DNA from: Acidimicrobiales bacterium | GTDB lineage: Bacteria; Actinomycetota; Acidimicrobiia; Acidimicrobiales; VFJN01 | NCBI GenBank assembly: GCA_035303865.1 | Contig: DATGRC010000027.1 | Coordinates: 1 to 37,207, forward strand | Reading direction: 5' to 3' | Length of the DNA: 37,207 bases | Part shown: positions 7,527-31,049 of the stretch, piece after piece | Position numbering within the stretch: position 1 is the stretch's first letter | How the letters are laid out: every line of letters starts with the position of its first letter | Made by a program: the position numbers and the translations under genes | Notes under the pieces: model-generated | Told to the model about the DNA's origin: nothing | Databases searched by the model: none | The model's input: only the letters and a program-made list of their open reading frames with translations

Positions 7527-9071
<1,545 letters not shown>

Positions 9072-9076
9072 CCCCA

Positions 9077-9133
9077 ACGAGATCTGTGTGCGTTTCGATG
9101 CGGTAGCCGCACGAAAGCCCGCACAGATCTCGT
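9077..9133. repeat. Nested-hairpin intergenic repeat, copy B
   Basis: Outer arms ACGAGATCTGTG (9077-9088) / CACAGATCTCGT (9122-9133). Inner hairpin TTTCG-A-TGCGG-TAG-CCGCA-CGAAA (9093-9116). Same orientation as copy A and 46 of 57 identical to it. Begins 6 nt after the guaB stop. Confidence 0.65.
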
Positions 9134-9152
9134 GTCGGGTAGGCAGGGGGCG

Positions 9153-9680
9153 ATGAGCGAGGGTCGCCACGTCGTGCTGCTCGGGCTGATGGGCGGTGGG
9201 AAGACGTCGGTGGGGCGGCGGGTGGCGGCCCGCCTGGGGCGCCCGCTCCTCGACGGCGACGCCCTGCTCGAGGCCCGCACCGGCCGCACCGCGGCCGAGA
9301 TCGCCGACTCGGAGGGGCTCGACCGGCTCCACGGGCTGGAGGCCGAGATCGCGATGGAGGCGCTGGCCTCGACCGAGCCGGCGGTCGTCAGCCCGGCGGC
9401 GTCGGTGGTCGAGGTCGACGCGGTCCGCGCCGCCCTGGCCGGCCACGCCGTCGTGTGGCTGGCGGCGTCAGCCGCGCACCACGCTCGGGCAGCGGTGGGG
9501 AAGGACCACCGGCCGCTGCTCGACGGCGACCCGCTCGCCCTCTTCGAGCACCAGCTCGCCGTGCGGGGCCCGCTCAGGCCATCGGTGGCCGAGCTCGTCA
9601 TCGACGTGGAGACCGCCACGAAGGACGAGCAGGCCGACGCCGTGGTGGCGCTCCTCCAGCGCCACCACCCCGAGCTCTGA
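9153..9680 (+). CDS. Shikimate kinase-like P-loop kinase (divergent)
   Basis: Walker A GLMGGGKTSVG followed by LLDGDALLEARTGRTAAEI, which resembles the D-x-D ... G-x-x-I-x-E-I pattern of shikimate kinases. I prefer ATG 9153 to the track GTG 9132, because 9132 lies inside the repeat hairpin. The usual GGG lid motif reads SPAASVV. Confidence 0.6.
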   Translation: MSEGRHVVLLGLMGGGKTSVGRRVAARLGRPLLDGDALLEARTGRTAAEIADSEGLDRLHGLEAEIAMEALASTEPAVVSPAASVVEVDAVRAALAGHAVVWLAASAAHHARAAVGKDHRPLLDGDPLALFEHQLAVRGPLRPSVAELVIDVETATKDEQADAVVALLQRHHPEL

Positions 9681-9710
9681 CCGCGACCGCGGGCCGCCGC
9701 CGCGGTCAGA
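9674..9710. terminator. Hairpin shared by convergent genes, with both stop codons inside the stem
   Basis: CTCTGACCGCG (9674-9684) pairs perfectly with CGCGGTCAGAG (9700-9710) across a 15-nt GC-rich loop. The TGA of the kinase-like gene and the TCA (minus-strand TGA) of the Nudix gene sit in opposite arms. No U tract. Confidence 0.4.
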
Positions 9711-10590
9711 GGTGGTCGAGCTGGCCGCGGGCGAGCGTGCCGGTGACGAGCCCGAGGAGCTGGCGCAGCATCGCCGCGGTGGCACCCCAGAGGGTGTCGC
9801 CCTCGAGCTCGAAGAAGAAGATGGGCCGGTCCTCGGCCCACGGGAGCTGCCAGCGCTCCTCCCGGTAGATGGCCGGGTCGAGCAGCTCGGCCACCGGGAC
9901 GTGGAGGACGGCGGACACCTCGGCCGGGTTGGGACGGGTGTCGGGCCGGCCGGGGAGGGCCCCGACGTAGGGGACGATGAACGAGCGGCTGGTGACGGTG
10001 GCCAGGTGGTCGAGCTCGCCGATCTGCTCCACGTCGTCGGGCGGCAGGCCGATCTCCTCCTGCGCCTCCCGCAGCGCCGTCTCCCAGAGCGTCTCGCCGG
10101 GGTCCTGACCGCCGCCGGGGAAGCTGACCTCACCGGAGTGGGAGCGCAGGTTCCAGGTGCGCCGGGTGAGCACGACCCACAGCTCGCCGTCGTCCTCGTA
10201 GAGCGGGGCCAGCACGGCCGACGCCCGGTCGATGCCCGGCAGCGTCTCGCGCTCGGACGGCAGCGCCGGGCCGGCCCGGCCGAGGGCCTCGCGCACGTCG
10301 TCGAGGCGGGGGCGCCGGGCGGCAGCGGGCAGGTCGGCCCACGGGGCGGGCCGCCCCGCCCGGGCGGTCAGCGGTCGGGGGATGATCTGGTCGCCCCCTC
10401 GCCCCGACGGGACCGGGACCGGTGGCGGCGGGAACGGCTCGCCGGGCCGCGGGAAGCCGGGCATGCCGCGCCGGGCGGCCTCCCGGGCCGACAGGATCGG
10501 GGGGTCGTAGCCGTCGATCGGGTCGGCGACGGCTTCCTCGAGGTCGTCCTCGTGGGCGTCGGTGGCGGGCTGGCCCTCAGGCGTCGGCAT
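9706..10590 (-). CDS. Nudix hydrolase (CoA pyrophosphatase-like) with a Pro-rich N-terminal extension
   Basis: 294 aa. Nudix box GGGQDPGETLWETALREAQEEIG. GC3 stays high through the roughly 100-aa Pro/Arg/Asp-rich N-terminus. The ATG lies 14 nt upstream of the stop of the preceding small ORF. Confidence 0.8.
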   Translation of the reverse strand: MPTPEGQPATDAHEDDLEEAVADPIDGYDPPILSAREAARRGMPGFPRPGEPFPPPPVPVPSGRGGDQIIPRPLTARAGRPAPWADLPAAARRPRLDDVREALGRAGPALPSERETLPGIDRASAVLAPLYEDDGELWVVLTRRTWNLRSHSGEVSFPGGGQDPGETLWETALREAQEEIGLPPDDVEQIGELDHLATVTSRSFIVPYVGALPGRPDTRPNPAEVSAVLHVPVAELLDPAIYREERWQLPWAEDRPIFFFELEGDTLWGATAAMLRQLLGLVTGTLARGQLDHL

Positions 10591-14780: not shown

Positions 14781-14807
14781 TTAGCACTCGATCTGAGCGA
14801 GTGCTAA
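14781..14807 (-). promoter_or_regulatory. CIRCE operator (HrcA site), promoter-proximal copy
   Basis: TTAGCACTC-GATCTGAGC-GAGTGCTAA is a perfect match to the CIRCE consensus TTAGCACTC-N9-GAGTGCTAA. It lies 32 nt upstream of the groES ATG. Confidence 0.9.
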
Positions 14808-14835
14808 CCGTAGACGCCCGGTTCAGCACTCGCAA
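14807..14835 (-). promoter_or_regulatory. Predicted groES-groEL promoter
   Basis: Minus strand: -35 TTGCGA (plus 14830-14835), a 17-nt spacer, then -10 TACGGT (plus 14807-14812). The -35 lies inside the distal CIRCE and the -10 abuts the proximal CIRCE. Sequence-based only. Confidence 0.5.
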
Positions 14836-14849
14836 CTGCCGAGTGCTAA
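14823..14849 (-). promoter_or_regulatory. CIRCE operator, distal copy
   Basis: TCAGCACTC-GCAACTGCC-GAGTGCTAA has one mismatch to the consensus. Confidence 0.85.
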
Positions 14850-14925
14850 TCCCGTGCCCGCCGGGAACCCGGCGGCGTCGCGCGGTCGTCCGATCCCCGT
14901 CATCGACGGTCGGAAAGGCGCTCCC

Positions 14926-17058
14926 ATGACGACGACAGGCGGCTCGCTCCCCTCCCCCTGGCTCCGCGCGCTCGCCGCGGCGGGCACGGTGCTGCTGCTC
15001 GCCGGGGCGATCGTGCTGAGCAACGACCGCCCGGCGGCGGCGACGGGCCTGCGGGCCTTCGCCAGCTGCCGCGAGCTGCGCGACCACCTGGCCGAGCGGG
15101 TCGCGGCGGACCGGCCAGCGCAGCTGGCGGTCGGGGACCGCGCCATGGCCGCCGACGACGCCGGCTCGGCGCCCGCGGCGACCGAAGCGGCCGCGGCGGC
15201 GCCGGGCTTCGCCGACGACGGCACGAACACGCAGGTGGCCGGGGTCGACGAGCTCGACGTGGTGGACCTGCTGCGCGACGGGCGCAGCGTCGTGGCCCGA
15301 GGGTCGGAGCTGTGGCTGGTGGCCGCCGACGGGCGGCAGGTCCTCGCCCGCACCCCGGCCCCACCCGACGCCCGGGTCACCGTGGACGAGGACCGGGGGC
15401 TCGTGTGGGCGGTCGGCAGCACCTGGGAGCGCACCGCCCTGCGGCGCATCCCGCTCGTCGGCGACGGGTTCGGCCCCGCCGACGAGTGGGCGGTGGCCGG
15501 GCGCCTGGTGGACCTGCGCCGCGCCGGGGCCACGGTGCACCTCGTCGCCGTCGACGACGAGGTGCGGCCGCTCGAGCCCGGCGCGGCCGGCGCCGGCGAC
15601 GCCGCCCTGCCCTTCGCCGGCACGTCCCCGGTGCCCTGCGACGAGGTGCTCCACTCCCCGCTGCCGGGCGGGCCGGCGACCACGCTCGTGGCCCGCTTCG
15701 CCGCCGAGGGACCGCTCGCCCCGACGGCGGCCACCGAGGTCGTGGGAGCGGGCGACAACGTGCTCGTCACCGCCGACGCCGTGTACGTCAGCACCCCCGT
15801 GGCGGACAGTGGCGCGCCGGTCACCGGGATCCACCGGTTCACGGCGGACGACCTGGCCCTCACCGGGTCGGGCACGGTGCCGGGCCGCCTGCTGAACCAG
15901 TTCGCCCTCGACGAGCACGACGGCCACCTGCGAGCGGCGGTCACCGTCGGTTGGGGCGGCCGGATGCTGCCGGTCGACGTGGTGGTCGAGCCAGCGGTCG
16001 AGGACGCCGTGGTGGGCCAAGCCGCCGCTGCGGCGACCCCGGCCCGAGACGAGGACCCGCCGGCGGGTGAGCCGGAGCCCGCACCGGCCACGAGCACCAC
16101 CGAGGCCGAGCCGACCACGTCGACCACGTCGACCACCGAGGCGGATCCGACCACGACGACGTCGTCGACCGCGCCGAGCACGCCGAGCACCGAGGCCACG
16201 ACCACCACGACCGAGGTGACGACCACCACCTCGGCGCCCGAGCTCGAGCCGCTGCCCCCGCAGCCCGACGCCCTCAACGAGATCGTCGTGCTCGACCTGG
16301 AGGGCGACCTCGACGTGGTGGGCCGCTCGGCGCGGTTCGGCAAGCCGGGCGAGACGATCCACGGGATCCGCTTCGCCGGCGACGTGGCCTACGCCGTCAC
16401 CTTCCTGCAGACCGACCCGTTCTACGTGGTGGACCTGTCGGACCCGACCCGCCCGGCGGTGCTCGGCCAGCTCGAGATCCCGGGCTTCTCCGCCTACCTC
16501 CACCCGATCAGCGACACGGAGGTGGTGGGCTTCGGCCCCGGCCCGGACGGCGGCGTGCTGGCCCGCCTCTTCGACGTGTCGCAGCCCGCGGCGCCGCGGG
16601 TGGTCGACACGGCGACCGTCGGTCACGACAGCCCGGTGGCCTACGACCACCACGCGCTGCGGACCGACGGCACCCGGATGCTGCTGCCGGCCACCGAGTG
16701 GGTGCCGATCGGCGCGGCGCCGGGGTGCCCCCCGATGCCTGAGGCCCAGGCCCGGATCGAGGCGCTGGTCGAGCAGCTCGACGCCGCCTACCGCGGGGAC
16801 CGCGACGCTGACGTGGCCGAGCTCGAGGCCGCGGTGGACGAGCTCCACGCCTGCGCCTACCCCGGCACCCAGCCCCGCGGGCACGTGGTCGCCCTGGAGC
16901 CCGGCGGCGGGCAGCTGCGGATGACCGTCGTCGCCACCGGTGCGGTGGGCGACCCCCAGCGAGCGCTGCCGATGCGCGACGGCGGCTACCTGCTCGTCGG
17001 CACCGACGTGGTGGTCAAGGTGGGCCCGGGCGGGGCGGTCGAGGCCGAGCTGGCCTGA
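14926..17058 (+). CDS. Secreted beta-propeller domain protein (PF09826-like) with an internal Thr/Ser/Pro-rich insert
   Basis: 710 aa from ATG 14926 (GGAAAGG SD). It has an N-terminal TM/signal segment (WLRALAAAGTVLLLAGAIVL). FASCRELRDHL, TNTQVAGVDELDVV and IHGIRFAGDVAYAVTFLQTDPFYVVDLSDPTRPAVLGQLEIPGFSAYLHP match my memory of the Beta_propel family. Confidence 0.75.
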   Translation: MTTTGGSLPSPWLRALAAAGTVLLLAGAIVLSNDRPAAATGLRAFASCRELRDHLAERVAADRPAQLAVGDRAMAADDAGSAPAATEAAAAAPGFADDGTNTQVAGVDELDVVDLLRDGRSVVARGSELWLVAADGRQVLARTPAPPDARVTVDEDRGLVWAVGSTWERTALRRIPLVGDGFGPADEWAVAGRLVDLRRAGATVHLVAVDDEVRPLEPGAAGAGDAALPFAGTSPVPCDEVLHSPLPGGPATTLVARFAAEGPLAPTAATEVVGAGDNVLVTADAVYVSTPVADSGAPVTGIHRFTADDLALTGSGTVPGRLLNQFALDEHDGHLRAAVTVGWGGRMLPVDVVVEPAVEDAVVGQAAAAATPARDEDPPAGEPEPAPATSTTEAEPTTSTTSTTEADPTTTTSSTAPSTPSTEATTTTTEVTTTTSAPELEPLPPQPDALNEIVVLDLEGDLDVVGRSARFGKPGETIHGIRFAGDVAYAVTFLQTDPFYVVDLSDPTRPAVLGQLEIPGFSAYLHPISDTEVVGFGPGPDGGVLARLFDVSQPAAPRVVDTATVGHDSPVAYDHHALRTDGTRMLLPATEWVPIGAAPGCPPMPEAQARIEALVEQLDAAYRGDRDADVAELEAAVDELHACAYPGTQPRGHVVALEPGGGQLRMTVVATGAVGDPQRALPMRDGGYLLVGTDVVVKVGPGGAVEAELA

Positions 17059-23471: not shown

Positions 23472-24377
23472 TCAGGCTGGGTCACGAACCTCGAGCCGCT
23501 CGAGGCGGTACTCCCACGGGGTGTCGCTGGCGGTGGCGCTGCAGGTGAGGGCCACGGCGGCACCCCGGTGGCGGGACACGGTGGCGAGCAGGGCGCCGGC
23601 TCCGTAGCCGAGCTCGACGGTGATCTGGTCGCCGTCGCGGGTCCAGGCCCGGGGCTCGAGGAGGGCGAGGCGGCGCTCGCCGAGCTCGAGCCGGGCGAGC
23701 ACCTCGGCGGCCTGGACGAGCGGCGGGTAGCAGCTGCGGCCCCGGTAGTGGTCGAGGGCGAGGAACCCGTCGGCGTGGTCGCGCAGGATGGCGACGGCCC
23801 GCTCCGGCGGGACCCGGCCGAAGTAGACGCCGGAGGGGAGGCAGACGACGTTGGCGGCGAAGCGGTCGCCGCCGACGTGGGAGGACTCCCACACGTCCTG
23901 GCCGGCGGCCCGCAGGACCCGGACCACGGGCCGGCCGAAGTCGGCGCAGCACGGGTCGTGGCGGCCGTTGGTGCACACGAGGTCGAGGCGCTCGACCCGC
24001 TCGCCCACCCCGGGCGGCGCGTCGGCGTCGAGCGCGCCGAGGGGCAGGTGGAGCAGCGCCTCGGGCTCGCGGATCCGCAGCCGCTCGGCCCAGCTGACCT
24101 GACGGTCGGAGCGGACGAGGAAGACCTGGTGGGCCCCGGTGGTGGGGGCCATCGAGCGACGCACGAGCACCACCCTCGCTCCGTGCCGGGCGGCGAGGCG
24201 ATGGACGCCCTCGGCCACGGCCTCGGGGATGCGGCTCTCCCGCAGCGCGTCGCTCCCCCAGGAGCCGGGCTGCTCCACGAGCAGCCACCGCCGCACCCGG
24301 GAGGCGGTGCCGAGGACCAGCTCGCCGCGCCGGCGCGAGTCGAGGGCGCAGCCGGGCGCCCCGGGCTCACGAGCCAT
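23472..24377 (-). CDS. Sucrase/ferredoxin-like (Suc_Fer-like) thioredoxin-fold protein
   Basis: 301 aa. WLLVEQPGSWG, LVCTNGRHDPCCADFGRP, SSHVGGDRFAANVV. The ATG overlaps the upstream cupin gene stop by 11 nt. Confidence 0.8.
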   Translation of the reverse strand: MAREPGAPGCALDSRRRGELVLGTASRVRRWLLVEQPGSWGSDALRESRIPEAVAEGVHRLAARHGARVVLVRRSMAPTTGAHQVFLVRSDRQVSWAERLRIREPEALLHLPLGALDADAPPGVGERVERLDLVCTNGRHDPCCADFGRPVVRVLRAAGQDVWESSHVGGDRFAANVVCLPSGVYFGRVPPERAVAILRDHADGFLALDHYRGRSCYPPLVQAAEVLARLELGERRLALLEPRAWTRDGDQITVELGYGAGALLATVSRHRGAAVALTCSATASDTPWEYRLERLEVRDPA

Positions 24378-25584
24378 CGGTGCGGTGGAGCACGCCCTCG
24401 CGCAGGAGGCGGCGGACGAAGACGGCTCGGCTGCCCTCGTCGAGCAGGTCCGAGAGGGCGCCGACGGGCAGCGCGGGCCCGTCCAGGACGCGGCGCAGCG
24501 CCGGCTCCAGGGCCGCTGGCAGGTCGATGCGGCGGTCGCTCAGCTCGAGCCCGATGCGGGACCCGTCGTCGCGGTCCGGGCGGGGGTGCAGCCGCCACGC
24601 CACGCCCGGTCGGCGGGCGACGACGGTGGCGTCGTCCACGGCACGGTCGGCGACCAGCTCGAGGAGCTGGCCCCGGCGCCGGGGGCTGCGCCGAGCCGAC
24701 TCCCGCCACACGAGCTCGTCGGCCACCTCCTCGGCGGGGAGGTCCTCGAGCCAGCGGAGCAGGTCGGCGACGACGTCCTTCACGACCCGCTGCGCGGTGT
24801 CGTCGTCGGCCGCGAACCGCACCGGCAGGGACCGCCGGAACGCGGGGTCCTCGGCCGTGCGGTCCACGATCTGGCGGAGCAGGTCGTGGCGGGTGCGGTT
24901 GAGGATCCCGATGGTCAGGTGGAGCGACGCCTCGGCCTGGGCGGCGGCCGAGTGCACGAAGCCGCGGGGCAGGTAGAGCGCGTCGCCGGGCTCGAGCACC
25001 CCGTCGAAGAGGACCGGCTGGGCGCCGGCCGCCTCGTGGTCGGAGCGGTGCCGCTCGAGGGGCGCCTCGACGAGCGGCTCGCGCACGGTCCAGTGCTTCG
25101 TGCCCTCGACCTGGAGGACGAGCACGTCGTGGGTGTCATGGTGCGGGGCGAACCCGGCGGCGCCGGCGGGGGTCAGGTAGGCGTTGGCCTGCACCGGGTG
25201 GCCGAGCTCGTGCTCGAGCTCGGCGCAGAAGTCCCCGAGCGGGGGCCACCAGCGGTGCAGCGAGTTGAGGACGATCGTGGCGCCGTCGGCGAAGGCGGCG
25301 AGGGTGCGGGCCGGGTCGACGAGGTCGTCGATCCAGGTGCTGCCGGTGCGGGCGCGGCGGGTGAACGACGACGGGGGAAGGACCTCGCCGTCGCGCGCCA
25401 GCCGCACCGCGGGTCGGCGCAGCCCCCCACCGGTGAGCTGGGCGTCGACGTCGGCCACCGACAGGAGGTCGGTGAACGGACCCGAGCGCCACCGGTGGGG
25501 AGCTCGGCCGAAGGCTTCGGCCAGGAAGGCCCCGGCGTCGCCGACGCAGCGCCCGAGGGCGCTGGTCGGCGGTCGCGCGGTCAC
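24367..25584 (-). CDS. JmjC / cupin-4 Fe(II)-2OG oxygenase (ribosomal-oxygenase YcfD/RoxA-like)
   Basis: 405 aa. FAPHHDTHDVLVLQVEGTKHWTV provides the HxD of the facial triad, and GDALYLPRGFVHSA provides the distal His. GTG start lies 13 nt after the micro-ORF stop; exact start uncertain. Confidence 0.8.
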   Translation of the reverse strand: MTARPPTSALGRCVGDAGAFLAEAFGRAPHRWRSGPFTDLLSVADVDAQLTGGGLRRPAVRLARDGEVLPPSSFTRRARTGSTWIDDLVDPARTLAAFADGATIVLNSLHRWWPPLGDFCAELEHELGHPVQANAYLTPAGAAGFAPHHDTHDVLVLQVEGTKHWTVREPLVEAPLERHRSDHEAAGAQPVLFDGVLEPGDALYLPRGFVHSAAAQAEASLHLTIGILNRTRHDLLRQIVDRTAEDPAFRRSLPVRFAADDDTAQRVVKDVVADLLRWLEDLPAEEVADELVWRESARRSPRRRGQLLELVADRAVDDATVVARRPGVAWRLHPRPDRDDGSRIGLELSDRRIDLPAALEPALRRVLDGPALPVGALSDLLDEGSRAVFVRRLLREGVLHRTDGS

Positions 25585-25597
25585 GGGGGGACGCCGG

Positions 25598-25783
25598 TCA
25601 GGCGTCGGTGCCGTCGGCGTCGCCGCCGTCGGTACCGTCGTCGTCGGCGTCCGTGCCGTCGTCGTCGGCGTCCGTGCCGTCGGCGTCGCCGCCGTCGGTG
25701 GCGTCGTCGTCGCCCTGGGCCTTCGGCGAGGTGATCAGCTCGGTGCGGATGTCCTCATCGGTGAGGTTGGTGACCACGGTCAT
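25598..25783 (-). CDS. Asp-rich repeat micro-protein (61 aa), hypothetical
   Basis: MTVVTNLTDEDIRTELITSPKAQGDDDATDGGDADGTDADDDGTDADDDGTDGGDADGTDA. ATG 25783 has AAAGG 8 nt upstream. GC3 is nearly saturated and in frame. This is the C-terminal part of track ORF 25598-26047, whose Arg-rich upstream part is rejected. Confidence 0.6.
   Translation of the reverse strand: MTVVTNLTDEDIRTELITSPKAQGDDDATDGGDADGTDADDDGTDADDDGTDGGDADGTDA
25613..25699 (-). repeat. In-frame 21-nt (7-codon) repeats inside the micro-ORF, in X-Y-Y-X arrangement
   Basis: Plus strand X = GTCGGCGTCGCCGCCGTCGGT at 25613-25633 and 25679-25699. Y = GTCGTCGTCGGCGTCCGTGCC at 25637-25657 and 25658-25678. All copies are perfect. Confidence 0.85.
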
Positions 25784-25887
25784 CGGCTGTGCCTTTCTGT
25801 CTCTGGGGCAGCCCCGGGAACCTGCCCACCGGGCCCAAGGTCTACACGGCGCTCCGGCCCCGTGCTCGGGCCCCGGCGACCGGTCGC

Positions 25888-26253
25888 TCAGAGGGCGACG
25901 GCGACGGCCTCGGCCAGCAGCGGCGTGTGGGTGAGCGTGAGCAGCCAGCGCTGGATCCCCCGCTCGTCGGCGGCGGCGAGCGCGGCGCCGGTGAGCCGCA
26001 GGGACGGCTGGCCGCTGCCGGCTCGCACCACCTCGATGTCGTGCCACCGGCAGGCGCCGAGGCCGAGCCCCATCGCCTTCAGCACCGCCTCCTTGGCCGC
26101 GAAGCGCGCCGCGTACCGCTCGGCCGGGTCGCCGCGCCGCTCGCAGTACGCCCGCTCCTCCGGGGTGAAGAGCCGGTGGGCGAGGGTGGGGGTCCGCTCC
26201 AGCGAGGTCCGCATCCGCGGCACCTCGCAGAGGTCGACCCCGATCCCGATCAC
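25888..26253 (-). CDS. acpS: Holo-[acyl-carrier-protein] synthase
   Basis: 121 aa from GTG 26253, which overlaps the glmS stop (GTGA). VIGIGVDLCEV, RFAAKEAVLKAMG. Confidence 0.9.
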   Translation of the reverse strand: MIGIGVDLCEVPRMRTSLERTPTLAHRLFTPEERAYCERRGDPAERYAARFAAKEAVLKAMGLGLGACRWHDIEVVRAGSGQPSLRLTGAALAAADERGIQRWLLTLTHTPLLAEAVAVAL

Positions 26254-29200
26254 GAGCGGAACCGGTCGGCCAGCTCTCGGATGGGCTCGACGAGCAGGTC
26301 GACGGCCGGGGTCTCGGCGAGCAGGTCCTCCCGGAAGGTCGGCTCGGTCTCGAGCACGGCGTCGCGCAGGGCCGACCAGCGGTTGCGGTAGCCCTGCAGG
26401 ACGCCGCGGGCGGCGGCCACGGAGAGGCGGTCCTGGAAGCGGACGTGCAGCAGCGTGATGCCGGTGGCCTTGTCGTCCTTGGTCTCGGGGACGATGACGA
26501 CGGTGCGGCCGTCCACGCGGCCCCGGGTCACGAAGACCTGGCGCTCGACGGCCACCGTGTGCTTGGTGCCCCGCAGGCGGCCGCCCCGCTCGGTGCGCGA
26601 CGGGATGTCCAGCGCGATGCCGCCCCGGTCGACGACGTGGACGGGCACCTCGCCGTCCTCGGCCTCGCCGTCGAGCTCGTAGCGGATCCAGCCGGTGACC
26701 TCCGCGATCGCCGGGTCGAGGTCGGCCAGGGTGCGCAGCACCCGGTAGGAGAGGCGGTCGCGGGCGGTGCCGGCGGCGAGGACGGCCTGCACGAGGCGGG
26801 GCTGGAGCAGCGTCTCGTCGCTGCGGGAGATGCCGACCGTGACCGTCTTGGCCTGGTGCTTGATGGCGTCGACGGGCCGGGTGAGCTCCTCGATGCCCTG
26901 GGTGAGCGCGGCCGTGAGGTCCTCGATGACCACGGCCGGGGTGCCGATGCGACCCATCTCCGCCTGGTAGGCGTCGAGCGAGGCGATCCCGAGCGCGTAG
27001 CGGAAGGCACCGGCCAGGCGCACGGCCGAGCTGGCCTCGAGGTTGCCGTCGTAAGCGCCGGCGCGCAGCCCGTCGAAGAACCGGGTGGCGGCGGCGGTGA
27101 GCGCGGGTCGGAGCTGCTGGAGCAGCGCGTCCCCGTCGGCGGCGGCCGACTCCCCCACCGCCTCCTCGATGGCGGCCCTGGCCTCGCGCAGCGGGAGGGC
27201 CTGCGCGTCGATGGCGAGCGCCGCCTCGTAGCCGAAGAGGTGCCCCGCCACCGCGGTGAGCACGAAGCCCAGCTGCGGGTGGCACTGCGGCACGGAGATC
27301 ACCGAGACGGCGGCGCTGTAGCGGGCCTGGTCGTCGCTGGCGATGACGATCGGGGTGGCCTTGTGGGCCCGGTAGATCGCCACCTCCTTGGCCACGTCGT
27401 CCGCGGTGGAGCCCTCGAGCCCCGCGGCGCACACGAGGATCATCGGCTCGCAGGACAGGTCGATGTGCTTCTTGTCCTCGGTGGCGTCGCAGGCGATCGA
27501 CCGGTAGCAGAGCTCGCTGAGCTTGATGCGCAGCTCGGCGGCGGCGATCCGGTTCACGCCGTTGCCGACGATGGCCCAGTACCGCTTGGCCGGCGCGAGC
27601 TCGCGAGCGGCGGCGGCGACCGCGTCTCGGCGGCGGAGCGTCTCCTCCATCTTCTCGGGGAGGCCGCGCAGCTCGGCGAGCAGCGCCGGGTCGACCGAGC
27701 CGCCCACCTCCTCGGCGATGGCCCAGGCGAGGAGGAAGCCGGCGGCGATCTGGGAGTAGAACGCCTTGGTGGAGGCCACGCTCATCTCCACGTCGCGCCC
27801 GTCGGAGGTGTAGAGGACGCCGTCGGACTTGTCCGTGAGGTCCGAGCCCCGGCGGTTGACGATCGACACGACGGTGGCGCCTCGCCCGCGGGCGAGGTCG
27901 ACGGTGCGGTTGGTGTCGGTGGTGGTGCCCGACTGGCTGATGGCCACGACGAGGGTGTCGGACATGTCGGGGCGCAGCCCGAAGCCGGACAGCTCGGTGG
28001 CGGGCAGGGCCTCGACCCGCAGGCAGCCCTCCGGGGCGGCGGCCTCGAGGGCGGCGGCGAGGCTCTGGCCGGCCACGTGGGCGGTGCCCTGGCCGATGAC
28101 CTGGACCCGGGTGATGCGGCCCTCCCGGAACCCGGCCCGCACCTCGGGGGTGAGGACGTCGGGTCCGAGCTCGACGGCGAGGCGCCCGTCGCGCTCGACG
28201 AGCTTGCCCCGCAGCGTCTTGCGGAAGCTGTTGGGGGCCTCCGAGATCTCCTTGAGCAGGTAGTGGGGGTGGTCGCCGCGGTCGATGTCGCGGGTGGTGA
28301 CCTCGGCCCGGTGGAGGTCGGCCTCGGTGACGGGGAGGTCGGTGCCGTCGTAGGCCTGGCGGGTGATCCCCTCGAGCGTGCCGGGGCGGGTGCCGTCGAG
28401 GACGACGATCTGGCCGCGGCTGGCGGTGGGGTTCTCCGGGTTGGCCGGGGTCTCGCCGTCGAGGCGCAGGTAGGTGTCGGTCAGCTCGACGACCCCGTAG
28501 GGCTCGGAGGCCACGATGTAGCAGCCGTCGGCCAGGCCGACGTAGAGCGCCTGGCCGGAGCCCCGCAGCGCGAGGAGGAGCTGGTCGGGGTGGGTGGCGG
28601 CGCTGGCGCCGATGGCCACCGACCCCTCGAAGGTGGCGACGGTGTCCCGGAACGCATCGACGAGCGCGGCGCCCTCGTCCAGGCGCCGCGAGATGAGGGT
28701 GGGGATGACCTTCGCGTCGGTGGTGATCTCGGGGGCGACGCGCAGCGCCTCGGCGGCCTTGAGGTCGGCGAAGTTGTCCACGTCGCCGTTCAGGACGGCG
28801 GACACGTAGGGCCCGTCGACGCGGTCGACCTCGTAGCTGTCGACGGGGTGCGCGTTGGGCTGGGAGATGATGCCGATGCTCGCCCAGCGGGTGTGGCCGA
28901 GGACCGTGGCGCGGGCCCGCTCGCCTCGCAGGGCGAGGTGGAGCAGCTCGTCGCCCACGACCTCGGCCCGGATGGCGGCGGTGTTGTCGCCGAGCTCGCC
29001 GATCTCGGCGGCCGCCTTGTAGACGAAGCAGAGGTGGCCCTCGGGGGTGCGCACCGTCCCGCTGCGGCACAGCGGATCGCCCGTCCGGGCCTCGAGGAGC
29101 TGCGCCACGGCGGGGTCGGCGAGATCGAGGTCGTGGTCCTGGACGAGCACCTCGATGCCGGCCGAGTCGCGCCCCCGCACCTCGAGGCGGTCGATCGCCG

Positions 29201-29666
29201 CCAGGGCCTGCTGGATGGAGGTGCCGATCTCGATGGCCGACCAGCCGGCGCCGGCTCCCACGAGGTCGCGCACCGCGCTCGCGGTGGGGACGCGGTCGCG
29301 CTCGACGGCCCAGCGGGCGTCCTTGAGCCGCACGATGGCGGCGTTCAGGTCCTCGAGCTCGCGCCCGGCGTCCGCGTCGTCGTCAAGCGCCGCCTCGACC
29401 TCGTCCACCCACGCGGCCACGGCGCCGCAGGTGGCGGTGATGCGGGTGCCGAGCGCGCTGTCGCGCACGAGGGCGGCCACCCCGTCGGTGGTCCGCAGGA
29501 GCCGATCGAGCTCTTCGAGGATCTGGGCGGCGGCCGTCGCGGCGGGGCGCGGCGGCTGCCCGCTGGCGATGGCGGCCTGGACGGCGTCGAGGCGATCGAG
29601 GATCTCAGGGGCGGGGATGGCGCGTCGGGCGCCGGGCCCCCGCTGGAGGGCGATGATGCCGCACAC
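26250..29666 (-). CDS. glmS: Glutamine--fructose-6-phosphate aminotransferase homologue, atypically long (1138 aa)
   Basis: GTG-TGC start gives Cys1 (MCGIIAL) with GGAAGGA SD. Canonical motifs are present: RGRDSAG (res 164-170), GHTRWAS...NAHP, LNGDVDN, TDAKVI, HYLLKEISEAPNS, ISQSGTTTDT, ASTKAF, and AKTVTV (res 939-944). Large extra segments separate them (see finding). It occupies the syntenic glmS position between glmM and acpS. Confidence 0.8.
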   Translation of the reverse strand: MCGIIALQRGPGARRAIPAPEILDRLDAVQAAIASGQPPRPAATAAAQILEELDRLLRTTDGVAALVRDSALGTRITATCGAVAAWVDEVEAALDDDADAGRELEDLNAAIVRLKDARWAVERDRVPTASAVRDLVGAGAGWSAIEIGTSIQQALAAIDRLEVRGRDSAGIEVLVQDHDLDLADPAVAQLLEARTGDPLCRSGTVRTPEGHLCFVYKAAAEIGELGDNTAAIRAEVVGDELLHLALRGERARATVLGHTRWASIGIISQPNAHPVDSYEVDRVDGPYVSAVLNGDVDNFADLKAAEALRVAPEITTDAKVIPTLISRRLDEGAALVDAFRDTVATFEGSVAIGASAATHPDQLLLALRGSGQALYVGLADGCYIVASEPYGVVELTDTYLRLDGETPANPENPTASRGQIVVLDGTRPGTLEGITRQAYDGTDLPVTEADLHRAEVTTRDIDRGDHPHYLLKEISEAPNSFRKTLRGKLVERDGRLAVELGPDVLTPEVRAGFREGRITRVQVIGQGTAHVAGQSLAAALEAAAPEGCLRVEALPATELSGFGLRPDMSDTLVVAISQSGTTTDTNRTVDLARGRGATVVSIVNRRGSDLTDKSDGVLYTSDGRDVEMSVASTKAFYSQIAAGFLLAWAIAEEVGGSVDPALLAELRGLPEKMEETLRRRDAVAAAARELAPAKRYWAIVGNGVNRIAAAELRIKLSELCYRSIACDATEDKKHIDLSCEPMILVCAAGLEGSTADDVAKEVAIYRAHKATPIVIASDDQARYSAAVSVISVPQCHPQLGFVLTAVAGHLFGYEAALAIDAQALPLREARAAIEEAVGESAAADGDALLQQLRPALTAAATRFFDGLRAGAYDGNLEASSAVRLAGAFRYALGIASLDAYQAEMGRIGTPAVVIEDLTAALTQGIEELTRPVDAIKHQAKTVTVGISRSDETLLQPRLVQAVLAAGTARDRLSYRVLRTLADLDPAIAEVTGWIRYELDGEAEDGEVPVHVVDRGGIALDIPSRTERGGRLRGTKHTVAVERQVFVTRGRVDGRTVVIVPETKDDKATGITLLHVRFQDRLSVAAARGVLQGYRNRWSALRDAVLETEPTFREDLLAETPAVDLLVEPIRELADRFRS

Positions 29667-29720
29667 GCAGGCGGTTCCTTCCGGTTCGGGGACCGGCCCA
29701 GCGTATCGACGGGGCCGCGC

Positions 29721-31049
29721 TCAGCGGGCCTCGAGGGCGGCCACGAGGCGGGCCACCGCGGCCTGGGCGGCCTCGGCGGTGGGCGCCTCGGCCATGACCC
29801 GCACGAGCGGCTCGGTGCCGCTCGGGCGGACCAGGACGCGACCTCCCTGGCCGAGGTCGCGCTCGGCGGCGGCCACCTCGTCGACCACGGCGGCGACGGC
29901 GGCGCGGGCGTCGCCGGCCACCCGCACGTTGTGCAGGACCTGGGGCAGGCGGGTCATCGCCTCGTCGGCCAGCGCCCCCAGGGGCCGTCCCGCTCGCTGG
30001 ACGACGTCGAGGAGCTGGACCGCGGTGAGGATGCCGTCGCCGGTGGTGGCGTGGTCGCGGAAGATGACATGCCCGCTCTGCTCGCCGCCCAGGGTGAGGT
30101 CGCCCTCGTCGAGGGCCTCGAGCACGTAGCGGTCCCCCACGGGGACGTCGAGCACCCGGATGCCGGCCTCGGCCATGCCGAGCCGGAAGCCGAGGTTGGT
30201 CATGACGGTGACGACCACCGTGTCGTCGGCGAGGAGCCCCCGCCGGTGCCGGTCGAGGGCGCACACCGCGATGATCTGGTCGCCGTCGATGAGCCGTCCG
30301 CCGGCGTCGACGGCGAGGCACCGGTCGGCGTCGCCGTCGAAGGCGATGCCGGCGGCGGCGCCGTGCTCGACGACAGCCCGCTGGAGGTCCTCGGGGTGGG
30401 TGGAGCCGCACCCGGCGTTGATGTTCGTGCCATCGGGCTGGTCGTGGATGGGGTGGACCTCGGCGCCGAGGGCGCGCAGCACCGCCGGACCGGTGCGGCT
30501 GGCGGCGCCGTTGGCGCAGTCGACCACAAGGCGCATCCCGTCGAGGCGGCGGCCGTCGATCGACGCGGCCACGGCCGCCGCCCAGGCGTCGACGTCGTCC
30601 TGACCGGCTCGGGCGGTGCCGACGGCGTCGCCGACGCGCGCCTCGGGGACGACCTCGTGGCTGAGGATCCGGTGGAGCTCGGCCTCCAGCTGTGCCTCCA
30701 CGTCGTCGCCGAGCTTGCGCCCACCGGGGCCGAAGAGCTTCACGCCGTTGTCGGCGAAGGGGTTGTGGGAAGCGGAGATGACCGCCCCGGCGATCCCGTC
30801 GCGGGCCGCCACCCAGGCCACCGCCGGGGTGGGCACCACGCCGAGGGTCGTGACGTCGGCGCCCTCGGCGGTGAGCCCGGCGAGGAGGGCGCCCTCGAGG
30901 AGCGGACCGGAGCGGCGGGTGTCGCGCCCGATCACGAACTCCCACGCCGGCAGCACCCGCGCCGCCGCGCGCCCGAGCGCCAGCACCAGCTCCGGCGTGA
31001 GGTCCTGGTTCGCCACGCCGCGAACCCCGTCGGTCCCGAACTTCAGCAC
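29721..31049 (-). CDS. glmM: Phosphoglucosamine mutase
   Basis: 442 aa from GTG 31049. VLKFGTDGVRGVAN, SASHNPFADNG (phosphoserine loop), GEQSGH. The upstream part of the track ORF is rejected. Confidence 0.92.
   Translation of the reverse strand: MLKFGTDGVRGVANQDLTPELVLALGRAAARVLPAWEFVIGRDTRRSGPLLEGALLAGLTAEGADVTTLGVVPTPAVAWVAARDGIAGAVISASHNPFADNGVKLFGPGGRKLGDDVEAQLEAELHRILSHEVVPEARVGDAVGTARAGQDDVDAWAAAVAASIDGRRLDGMRLVVDCANGAASRTGPAVLRALGAEVHPIHDQPDGTNINAGCGSTHPEDLQRAVVEHGAAAGIAFDGDADRCLAVDAGGRLIDGDQIIAVCALDRHRRGLLADDTVVVTVMTNLGFRLGMAEAGIRVLDVPVGDRYVLEALDEGDLTLGGEQSGHVIFRDHATTGDGILTAVQLLDVVQRAGRPLGALADEAMTRLPQVLHNVRVAGDARAAVAAVVDEVAAAERDLGQGGRVLVRPSGTEPLVRVMAEAPTAEAAQAAVARLVAALEAR

Follow-up and report, generated by a model that had tools for sequence, protein, structure and literature searches.

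Glucosamine-6-phosphate (GlcN-6-P) synthase, GlmS, catalyses the committed step of uridine diphosphate N-acetylglucosamine (UDP-GlcNAc) and peptidoglycan synthesis; it is a target for antibiotics and a textbook example of ammonia channelling. The decapeptide that ends the chain is seen as a lid with one end free. We describe a GlmS homologue of 1138 amino acids (aa), encoded at 26250..29666 on the reverse strand of a stretch of 37,207 nucleotides (nt) from an Acidimicrobiales bacterium (assembly GCA_035303865.1, contig DATGRC010000027.1), the whole of which we call the window. Judged from its sequence, this long form of GlmS unites the complete invariant GlmS catalytic set with the chromosomal slot of glmS. 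It is probably the housekeeping GlcN-6-P synthase (glutamine–fructose-6-phosphate aminotransferase) of its class, the Acidimicrobiia, with built-in modules that probably serve regulation.

Bacterial GlmS proteins (TIGR01135/NF001484; PDB 1jxa, 2j6h, 4amv) are about 610 aa long and consist, in this order, of an N-terminal nucleophile (Ntn) glutaminase, two SIS subdomains and a terminal tail. In glmS control, GlmR/YvcK are protein activators. Control is exerted elsewhere by the glmS ribozyme (Firmicutes) and by the small RNAs GlmY and GlmZ (Enterobacteria) (PMC10087520). In E. coli GlmS the C-tail becomes ordered on binding of fructose-6-phosphate (Fru-6-P) and closes the isomerase site (PMC10087520). 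The eukaryotic homologues GFAT1 and GFAT2 (PDB 6r4e, 6svp), of about 680–700 aa, are enlarged for protein-level regulation, with UDP-GlcNAc feedback and a protein kinase A site. Their extra loop lies elsewhere within the glutaminase domain, and they keep the free ...KSVTVE tail (PMC10087520).

Homology to GlmS and the catalytic residues

In order to place the long-form protein, we compared it with domain families, solved structures and structural models. GlmS was its sole significant similarity. Pfam located a GATase_6 domain at residues 254–388 and one SIS domain at 520–647, and the NCBIfam GlmS models covered residues 251–819 (NF001484, E = 6.9e-74; TIGR01135, E = 5.3e-71). The best solved relatives were E. 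coli GlmS (E = 1.4e-31, alignment over 253–818) and human GFAT1. A Foldseek search with the full-length AlphaFold2 (AF2) model, which has a predicted local distance difference test score (pLDDT) of 72.9 and a predicted template modelling score (pTM) of 0.56, likewise returned GlmS and GFAT1 at the top (E = 1e-23 to 1e-20), with GFAT1/GFAT2 scoring equal to E. coli GlmS. Identity to E. coli GlmS in the core was about 22–25%. An earlier note on this DNA, written from the letters and open reading frames (ORFs), had recognised a 1138-aa GlmS homologue here. The motifs that it named were all found in order and at their sites: MCGIIALQRG (residues 1–10), RGRDSAG (164–170), EDKKHID (730–736), GYEAALAID (812–820) and AKTVTV (939–944). 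All features of the protein are on the reverse strand, (-). The first ten residues, M-CGIIALQRG (29637..29666), form the first glutaminase strand, whose Ntn nucleophile Cys aligns to E. coli C1. The class-II (Ntn) glutaminase core follows at residues 161–455 (28302..29186), as delimited by the GATase_6 match and the residue map given below, and the isomerase domain with its two SIS subdomains occupies residues 456–820 (27207..28301), as indicated by Pfam, the PDB alignment and Foldseek.

We then mapped catalytic and ligand residues across 48 long forms, 39–84% identical to the window protein, against an E. coli GlmS reference 100% identical to PDB 2j6h_A. The nucleophile C1 corresponds to C2 in 47 of the 48; it is lacking in P0058, which starts about 20 residues in. 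Retained in all 48 were the counterparts of E. coli R26 (R164 in the window protein), D29 (D167), R73 (R260), W74 (W261), H86 (H273), N98 (N293), G99 (G294), D123 (D317), T302 (T528), Q348 and S349 (Q578 and S579), T352 (T582), V399 (V630), S401 (S632), K485 (K715), E488 (E718), H504 (H734), A602 and K603 (A939 and K940), and T606 and V607 (T943 and V944). S347 corresponds to S577, present in 47/48, and T76 has undergone a conservative change to serine (S263), again in 48/48. In E. coli numbering, R26, R73, W74, N98, G99 and D123 belong to the glutamine site, S347–S349, T352 and S401 are ligands of Fru-6-P, and K485, E488 and H504 are catalytic. The segment EDKKHID, which the earlier note had read in place of ELKHGP, carries the H504 equivalent H734. 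In 26 aligned long forms the Cys directly follows the start codon wherever the N-terminus is present, and the N-terminal extensions of two entries (P0054 and P0081) appear to be miscalled starts. This adjacency counts for the GlmS reading because an Ntn hydrolase needs an N-terminal Cys. The long form therefore has in common with bacterial GlmS the order of glutaminase, two SIS subdomains and tail, together with all tested catalytic and substrate residues and the C-tail motif AK[ST]VTV.

Added modules and the internal C-tail

In contrast to bacterial GlmS, the long form carries about 140 extra aa after strand 1, about 48 aa in the glutaminase, about 110 aa before the tail and a C-terminal domain of 190 aa; GFAT has neither the N-terminal helical module nor the C-terminal domain. 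Helical insert 1 (residues 11–160, 29187..29636), delimited by the AF2 model, conservation and a gap in the E. coli alignment, is predicted to be a six-helix bundle (AF2 helices 19–160) between the Cys1 strand and helix alpha1/R26. It falls between E. coli residues ~9 and 14, with the gap opposite 10–13. The block was modelled at pLDDT values mostly of 79–93, falling to 65–70 at residues 91–110, and has conserved polar positions at E105, N108, D116, W119, D124 and R125. Structure prediction thus bore out the roughly 150 helical-looking residues that had been noted after the Cys1 strand, as six predicted helices with a net gain of ~140 aa over E. coli. A further expansion of the glutaminase domain by ~48 aa, at residues ~176–252 with the invariant FVYKAAAEIGELGDN, was absent from the earlier note. 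Helical insert 2 (residues 821–929, 26880..27206; AF2 helices 800–941) accounts for the stretch of about 115 residues that had been seen between the end of SIS-2 and AKTVTV, and amounts to ~110 aa net. Its helices continue the last SIS-2 helix and precede the C-tail motif. When residues 796–1138, which include insert 2, were modelled separately from a 31-sequence cross-phylum alignment, the pLDDT was 89.

The C-tail of GlmS is found inside the chain, as RPVDAIKHQAKTVTVGISR at residues 930–948 (26823..26879), located by its invariance and by the MAFFT alignment of the E. coli tail. MAFFT set the E. coli tail DQPRNLAKSVTVE on the window segment DAIKHQAKTVTVG unguided. The motif HQAKTVTVG at 937–945 was invariant in the 48 sequences, which come from at least three phyla, and no other stretch of the C-terminal third is as well conserved; for A-K-[ST]-V-T-V the chance expectation is 5e-5 in 320 residues of this composition. 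K940 is the counterpart of E. coli K603, and G945 stands in place of the terminal E608. The claim of an internal tail followed by 194 residues was upheld by the ORF and by this alignment: instead of the free C-terminal tail by which GlmS is recognised, the protein continues from V944 to a total of 1138 aa. The tail segment was the lowest-confidence part of both models (low pLDDT at 942–951 in the full-length one), which fits, without proving, a mobile element.

Beyond the tail lies a predicted alpha/beta domain of 190 aa (residues 949–1138, 26253..26822), defined from the AF2 model of 796–1138 and Foldseek. Its elements are predicted in the order helix, two strands, helix, three strands and helices, and it has invariant residues at G992, Y996, G1016, R1024, L1031, G1033, K1035, G1049, D1052, P1060, H1074 and E1106. 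Foldseek against PDB gave no significant match for the domain (best E = 0.012). Most of the top 50 matches were PAS, GAF and Cache sensors, including KinD (4jgo), the fRMsr GAF domain (3ksg), PtsP-GAF (3ci6), WalK (4ywz), Tlp3 and LOV domains, and the likeness to them would lie in a predicted helix-flanked, five-stranded antiparallel sheet. In this respect the model looks like a PAS/GAF-type, sensor-like fold, a resemblance that the earlier note had missed. It differs from these sensors in that the fold matches are weak and that no PAS, GAF or Cache sequence family was matched in the domain, either by Pfam at E ≤ 10 or by PDB profile. We found no description of a C-terminal fusion of GlmS to PAS, GAF or Cache domains.

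Domain mapping assigned only GATase_6 and SIS. None of the three added regions matched a Pfam family at gathering score, and the C-terminal third had no PDB sequence match by profile. Below these thresholds (Pfam on the added regions, E ≤ 10), phiKZ_IP (19 bits, with the cut-off at 27) and Nup57 (E = 0.46) were treated as noise, as was DUF5132 (E = 0.004) inside the glutaminase expansion. In the added modules the columns were on average 75% identical within the class and 51–55% identical between phyla, and many polar residues do not vary at all. The alignments thus indicate strong constraint on these modules.

The gene, its family and its neighbourhood

The long-form glmS is a real gene of 1138 codons plus stop, as supported by the ORF list, a G+C of 0.98 at third codon positions (GC3), full-length homologues and contiguity in independent assemblies. 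It begins with GTG followed by TGC, giving the N-terminus M-C-G-I-I. Its G+C at the three codon positions (0.75/0.50/0.98) is typical for a genome of 75% G+C, which marks it as a real gene; the window has a G+C of ~75%. A Shine-Dalgarno sequence, GGAAGGA, can be read at 29682-29676 (-), 9 nt 5' of the GTG and within the 54-nt spacer that separates the start from the glmM stop codon (29723-29721). At the other end, the TGA stop (26252-26250) overlaps the GTG of acpS (26253-26251), so that the GTGA coupling to acpS given in the earlier note can be read directly at 26253-26250. An Rfam scan of the whole 37-kb window revealed neither a glmS ribozyme nor any other Rfam family at gathering score.

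The unusual length of the gene is what would speak for an artefact of assembly or annotation, such as a fused duplicate or two genes read through. This explanation is already refuted, and we give it practically no chance. One 5609-nt contig from an independent metagenome run (X1) runs without gaps through 25800-30200 and has a single mismatch there, and three further runs tile the region. Of the 31-mers of the gene, 96–99% recur in each of at least 20 independent metagenome runs, and near-identical copies occur in runs from compost, manure, wastewater and gut. Proteins of the same full-length architecture fill more than 120 clusters (90% identity), and the genomes of at least 598 species encode it. 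Inside the gene, a single weak 21-nt, two-copy match was the only repeat, so that tandem or internal duplication was rejected as the cause of the length, and the frame is continuous, with the GC3 given above. Apparent joints in the contig tiling were 20–22-nt chance matches to unrelated high-GC contigs, and deletions were rejected. Gene continuity is settled, since full-length contig pieces cover the gene. The length is thus no assembly artefact, a possibility that the earlier note had left standing.

These more than 120 clusters come from a search of 5.8 billion proteins and contain full-length proteins of 1135–1175 aa, 67–85% identical. Among the matches listed, the named clusters came from Acidimicrobiales, Acidimicrobiia or Microthrixaceae metagenome-assembled genomes (MAGs), except for one labelled Thermoanaerobacterales (P0113). 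We also scanned 1.84 billion cluster representatives (50% identity) exhaustively with residues 818–1138 alone, using HMMER, and obtained 694 clusters, 183 of them below 1e-30. Every full-length match was 1070–1280 aa long with the region at its C-terminus. No stand-alone C-terminal extension was found among the 694 clusters, and the short matches resemble contig-end fragments. Profile searches from divergent members revealed the same architecture, at 35–50% identity, in MAGs of Candidatus Xenobia and Planctomycetota. When the GTDB species were scanned, each represented by one genome, tail and extension were present in at least 598 genomes. The best 80 of these are essentially all Acidimicrobiia, among them the cultured Aquihabitans sp. 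G128 as well as MAGs that bear the labels Ferrithrix, Iamia and Microthrix. Three loci with an Acidimicrobiia-type long gene and synteny are titled 'Bifidobacterium breve' (L042) and 'Acidobacteria bacterium' (L050 and L075); these labels, like that of P0113, probably reflect mis-binned or mislabelled MAGs. In one Iamiaceae MAG (L073, 7580-10012), the N-terminal 800 aa appeared in two tblastn pieces (7580-8596 and 9056-10012), which points to a frameshift, an additional insert or faulty assembly of this MAG.

The earlier note had allowed for the long form being a well-populated, already characterised subfamily. It is well populated, as the 694 clusters and at least 598 species indicate, and it is not characterised: our literature search found no description of a long-form GlmS or of its added modules, and no dedicated Pfam or NCBIfam model was found among the curated families. 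The long form is common in nature and uncharacterised, and automatic pipelines already label many of its members GlmS. We consider it probable that it represents an old family and is the norm in Acidimicrobiia.

In the window the gene order is rplM-rpsI-glmM-[long-form glmS]-acpS-...-nnr-...-tsaE-...-groES-groEL. Immediately upstream of the long gene lies glmM, for phosphoglucosamine mutase (29721..31049, start approximate, (-)), with four PGM_PMM Pfam domains. Downstream, and coupled to the long gene by the overlap, lies acpS, for holo-ACP synthase (25888..26253, (-); Pfam ACPS, 2.8e-18). Two Mb-scale contigs (L001 and L004) have the order rplM-rpsI-glmM-[long gene]-acpS-nnr-alr-tsaE-tsaB-rimI-tsaD-groES-groEL. 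We further read the context of related loci to at most 10 kb on either side. Among 80 species loci, 66 could be tested for glmM, and 48 of these have it no more than 600 nt upstream of the long gene; for acpS, 67 of 76 have it at most 600 nt downstream. These counts agree with the syntenic glmS position that the gene had been assigned. We take this to be the housekeeping cluster that houses canonical glmS in other Actinobacteria, and the long form shares this neighbourhood with the GlmS of those bacteria. By its position it is thus probably the orthologue of glmS within the conserved actinobacterial rplM-rpsI-glmM-glmS-acpS-nnr-alr-tsaE cluster.

Outside the class the surroundings differ. In a Xenobia-like genome (L002; GCA_018780265.1, JADMJV010000012.1, 10001-13531) the long gene lies immediately upstream of rpmH-rnpA-yidD-yidC-jag-mnmE-mnmG-rsmG, another housekeeping neighbourhood, which contains neither glmM nor acpS. 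On a Planctomycetes contig the neighbours were uninformative.

Several other features of the window were observed around the cluster. Between acpS and nnr lie a JmjC_2/cupin gene (24367-25584, (-)) and a sucrase/ferredoxin-like gene (23472-24377, (-)). These look like a lineage-specific insertion into the cluster, because nnr directly follows acpS in the two Mb-scale contigs. A small ORF (25598-25783, (-)), between the JmjC gene and acpS, encodes a C-terminal, acidic, Asp/Gly/Thr-rich tandem repeat, DDDATDGGDADGTDADDDGTDADDDGTDGGDADGTDA. The repeat occupies 25601-25714, and TRF reported periods of 21 and 15 nt in 5–7.5 copies. On the opposite strand, beside groES/groEL, 14797-17058 (+) encodes a 753-aa protein with a Beta_propel domain (PF09826).

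Proposed function and control of the long form

If the long form follows the canonical chemistry of E. coli GlmS, it would make GlcN-6-P in the following way. Cys1 would hydrolyse glutamine, and the ammonia would be channelled to the isomerase site. There K940 would form a Schiff base with Fru-6-P, E718 would act as the base, and H734 of the partner subunit would open the sugar ring. The lid of the sugar site would be a loop without a free end, tethered to the ~110-aa helical module and to the 190-aa PAS/GAF-like domain. The additions, including the helical module near the N-terminus that adjoins the glutaminase site, would most likely govern how the lid closes and how the domains are coupled. 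They would then form a built-in, protein-level regulator, perhaps one that responds to a small phosphorylated ligand. Such control in cis would replace the RNA-based or partner-protein control of glmS in other bacteria. The ribozyme, small-RNA and GlmR/YvcK systems likewise match GlcN-6-P synthesis to demand, but they act via RNA or a separate protein, whereas the control proposed here would be exerted by a module of the enzyme itself. In a more specific version of this proposal, the sensor and the two helical modules would bind a pathway metabolite (e.g. UDP-GlcNAc, GlcN-6-P or another phosphorylated signal) and would mechanically control closure of the C-tail and the ammonia channel; we put this forward tentatively.

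Two other explanations have to be weighed against the housekeeping reading. One is that the long form is a neofunctionalised paralogue, acting on another sugar phosphate or in a GlcN-6-P-related role, with a canonical housekeeping glmS elsewhere. Several observations favour it and weigh against our own reading. The scores of the protein fall far short of the cut-offs set for the curated GlmS models (NF001484, 249.3 bits against 381; TIGR01135, 239.9 against 418), and it carries large extra domains. At the known ligand positions it departs from E. coli in two places, and in these only: S303 is Ala in 48/48, and H77 is replaced by V, I or N. In Xenobia and Planctomycetota the long gene does not lie beside glmM. 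Against our own reading it also counts that NCBI names the long forms 'SIS domain-containing protein', and that the full-length model is moderate and poor at both active-site loops (701–738 and 942–951), so that the siting of K940 in the active site is putative. Against a paralogue, however, the gene lies precisely where glmS belongs, between glmM and acpS, throughout the class, and no variation is seen in the Fru-6-P and glutamine ligands or in the catalytic residues, the Schiff-base Lys among them. Moreover, there is no biosynthetic-cluster context, and the JGI pipelines, which name these proteins GlmS, already assign EC 2.6.1.16. Taken together, these findings make a paralogue quite unlikely.

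The other explanation accepts an active GlmS and takes the extra modules as purely architectural, serving oligomerisation, stability or scaffolding with no ligand sensing. We infer the regulatory role of the additions, and to that role this is a serious rival, if on balance an unlikely one. Of the three additions, two are simple bundles of helices, and the genomic context indicates neither a ligand nor a partner. The PAS/GAF similarity is weak (Foldseek E = 0.012–0.2, TM ~0.2–0.5, identity 9–18%), which likewise counts against a sensor. The C-terminal domain of large-subunit catalases offers an analogue, and a shift between dimer and hexamer is known for E. coli GlmS (PMC10087520). In contrast, R1024, K1035, D1052, H1074 and E1106 of the C-terminal domain, and E105, N108, D116, W119 and D124 of insert 1, are invariant across phyla, and such a polar and charged pattern is commoner in binding sites than in scaffolds. 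Moreover, the Cys1 region and the C-tail, the two catalytic elements that move, are both flanked by additions. We therefore favour a housekeeping GlcN-6-P synthase with probably regulatory modules. By mechanism and ancestry, as far as homology can tell, the long form is a GlmS; by curated thresholds and architecture it stands outside the defined family.

In summary, a class of Actinomycetota abundant in soil, compost, wastewater and marine environments apparently uses a GlmS of twice the usual size. Since the curated NCBI models miss the long forms, which are named 'SIS domain-containing protein' instead, pathway reconstructions that start from Acidimicrobiia genomes with this annotation may wrongly report glmS as absent. 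If the long form is active, the lid of the enzyme needs no free terminus, and the family would be a natural system for the control in cis of lid closure and domain coupling. Should the allosteric proposal be true, the long form would constitute a protein-encoded feedback switch that sets the supply of cell-wall precursors throughout a bacterial class, in place of the ribozyme, small-RNA and partner-protein systems used by others.

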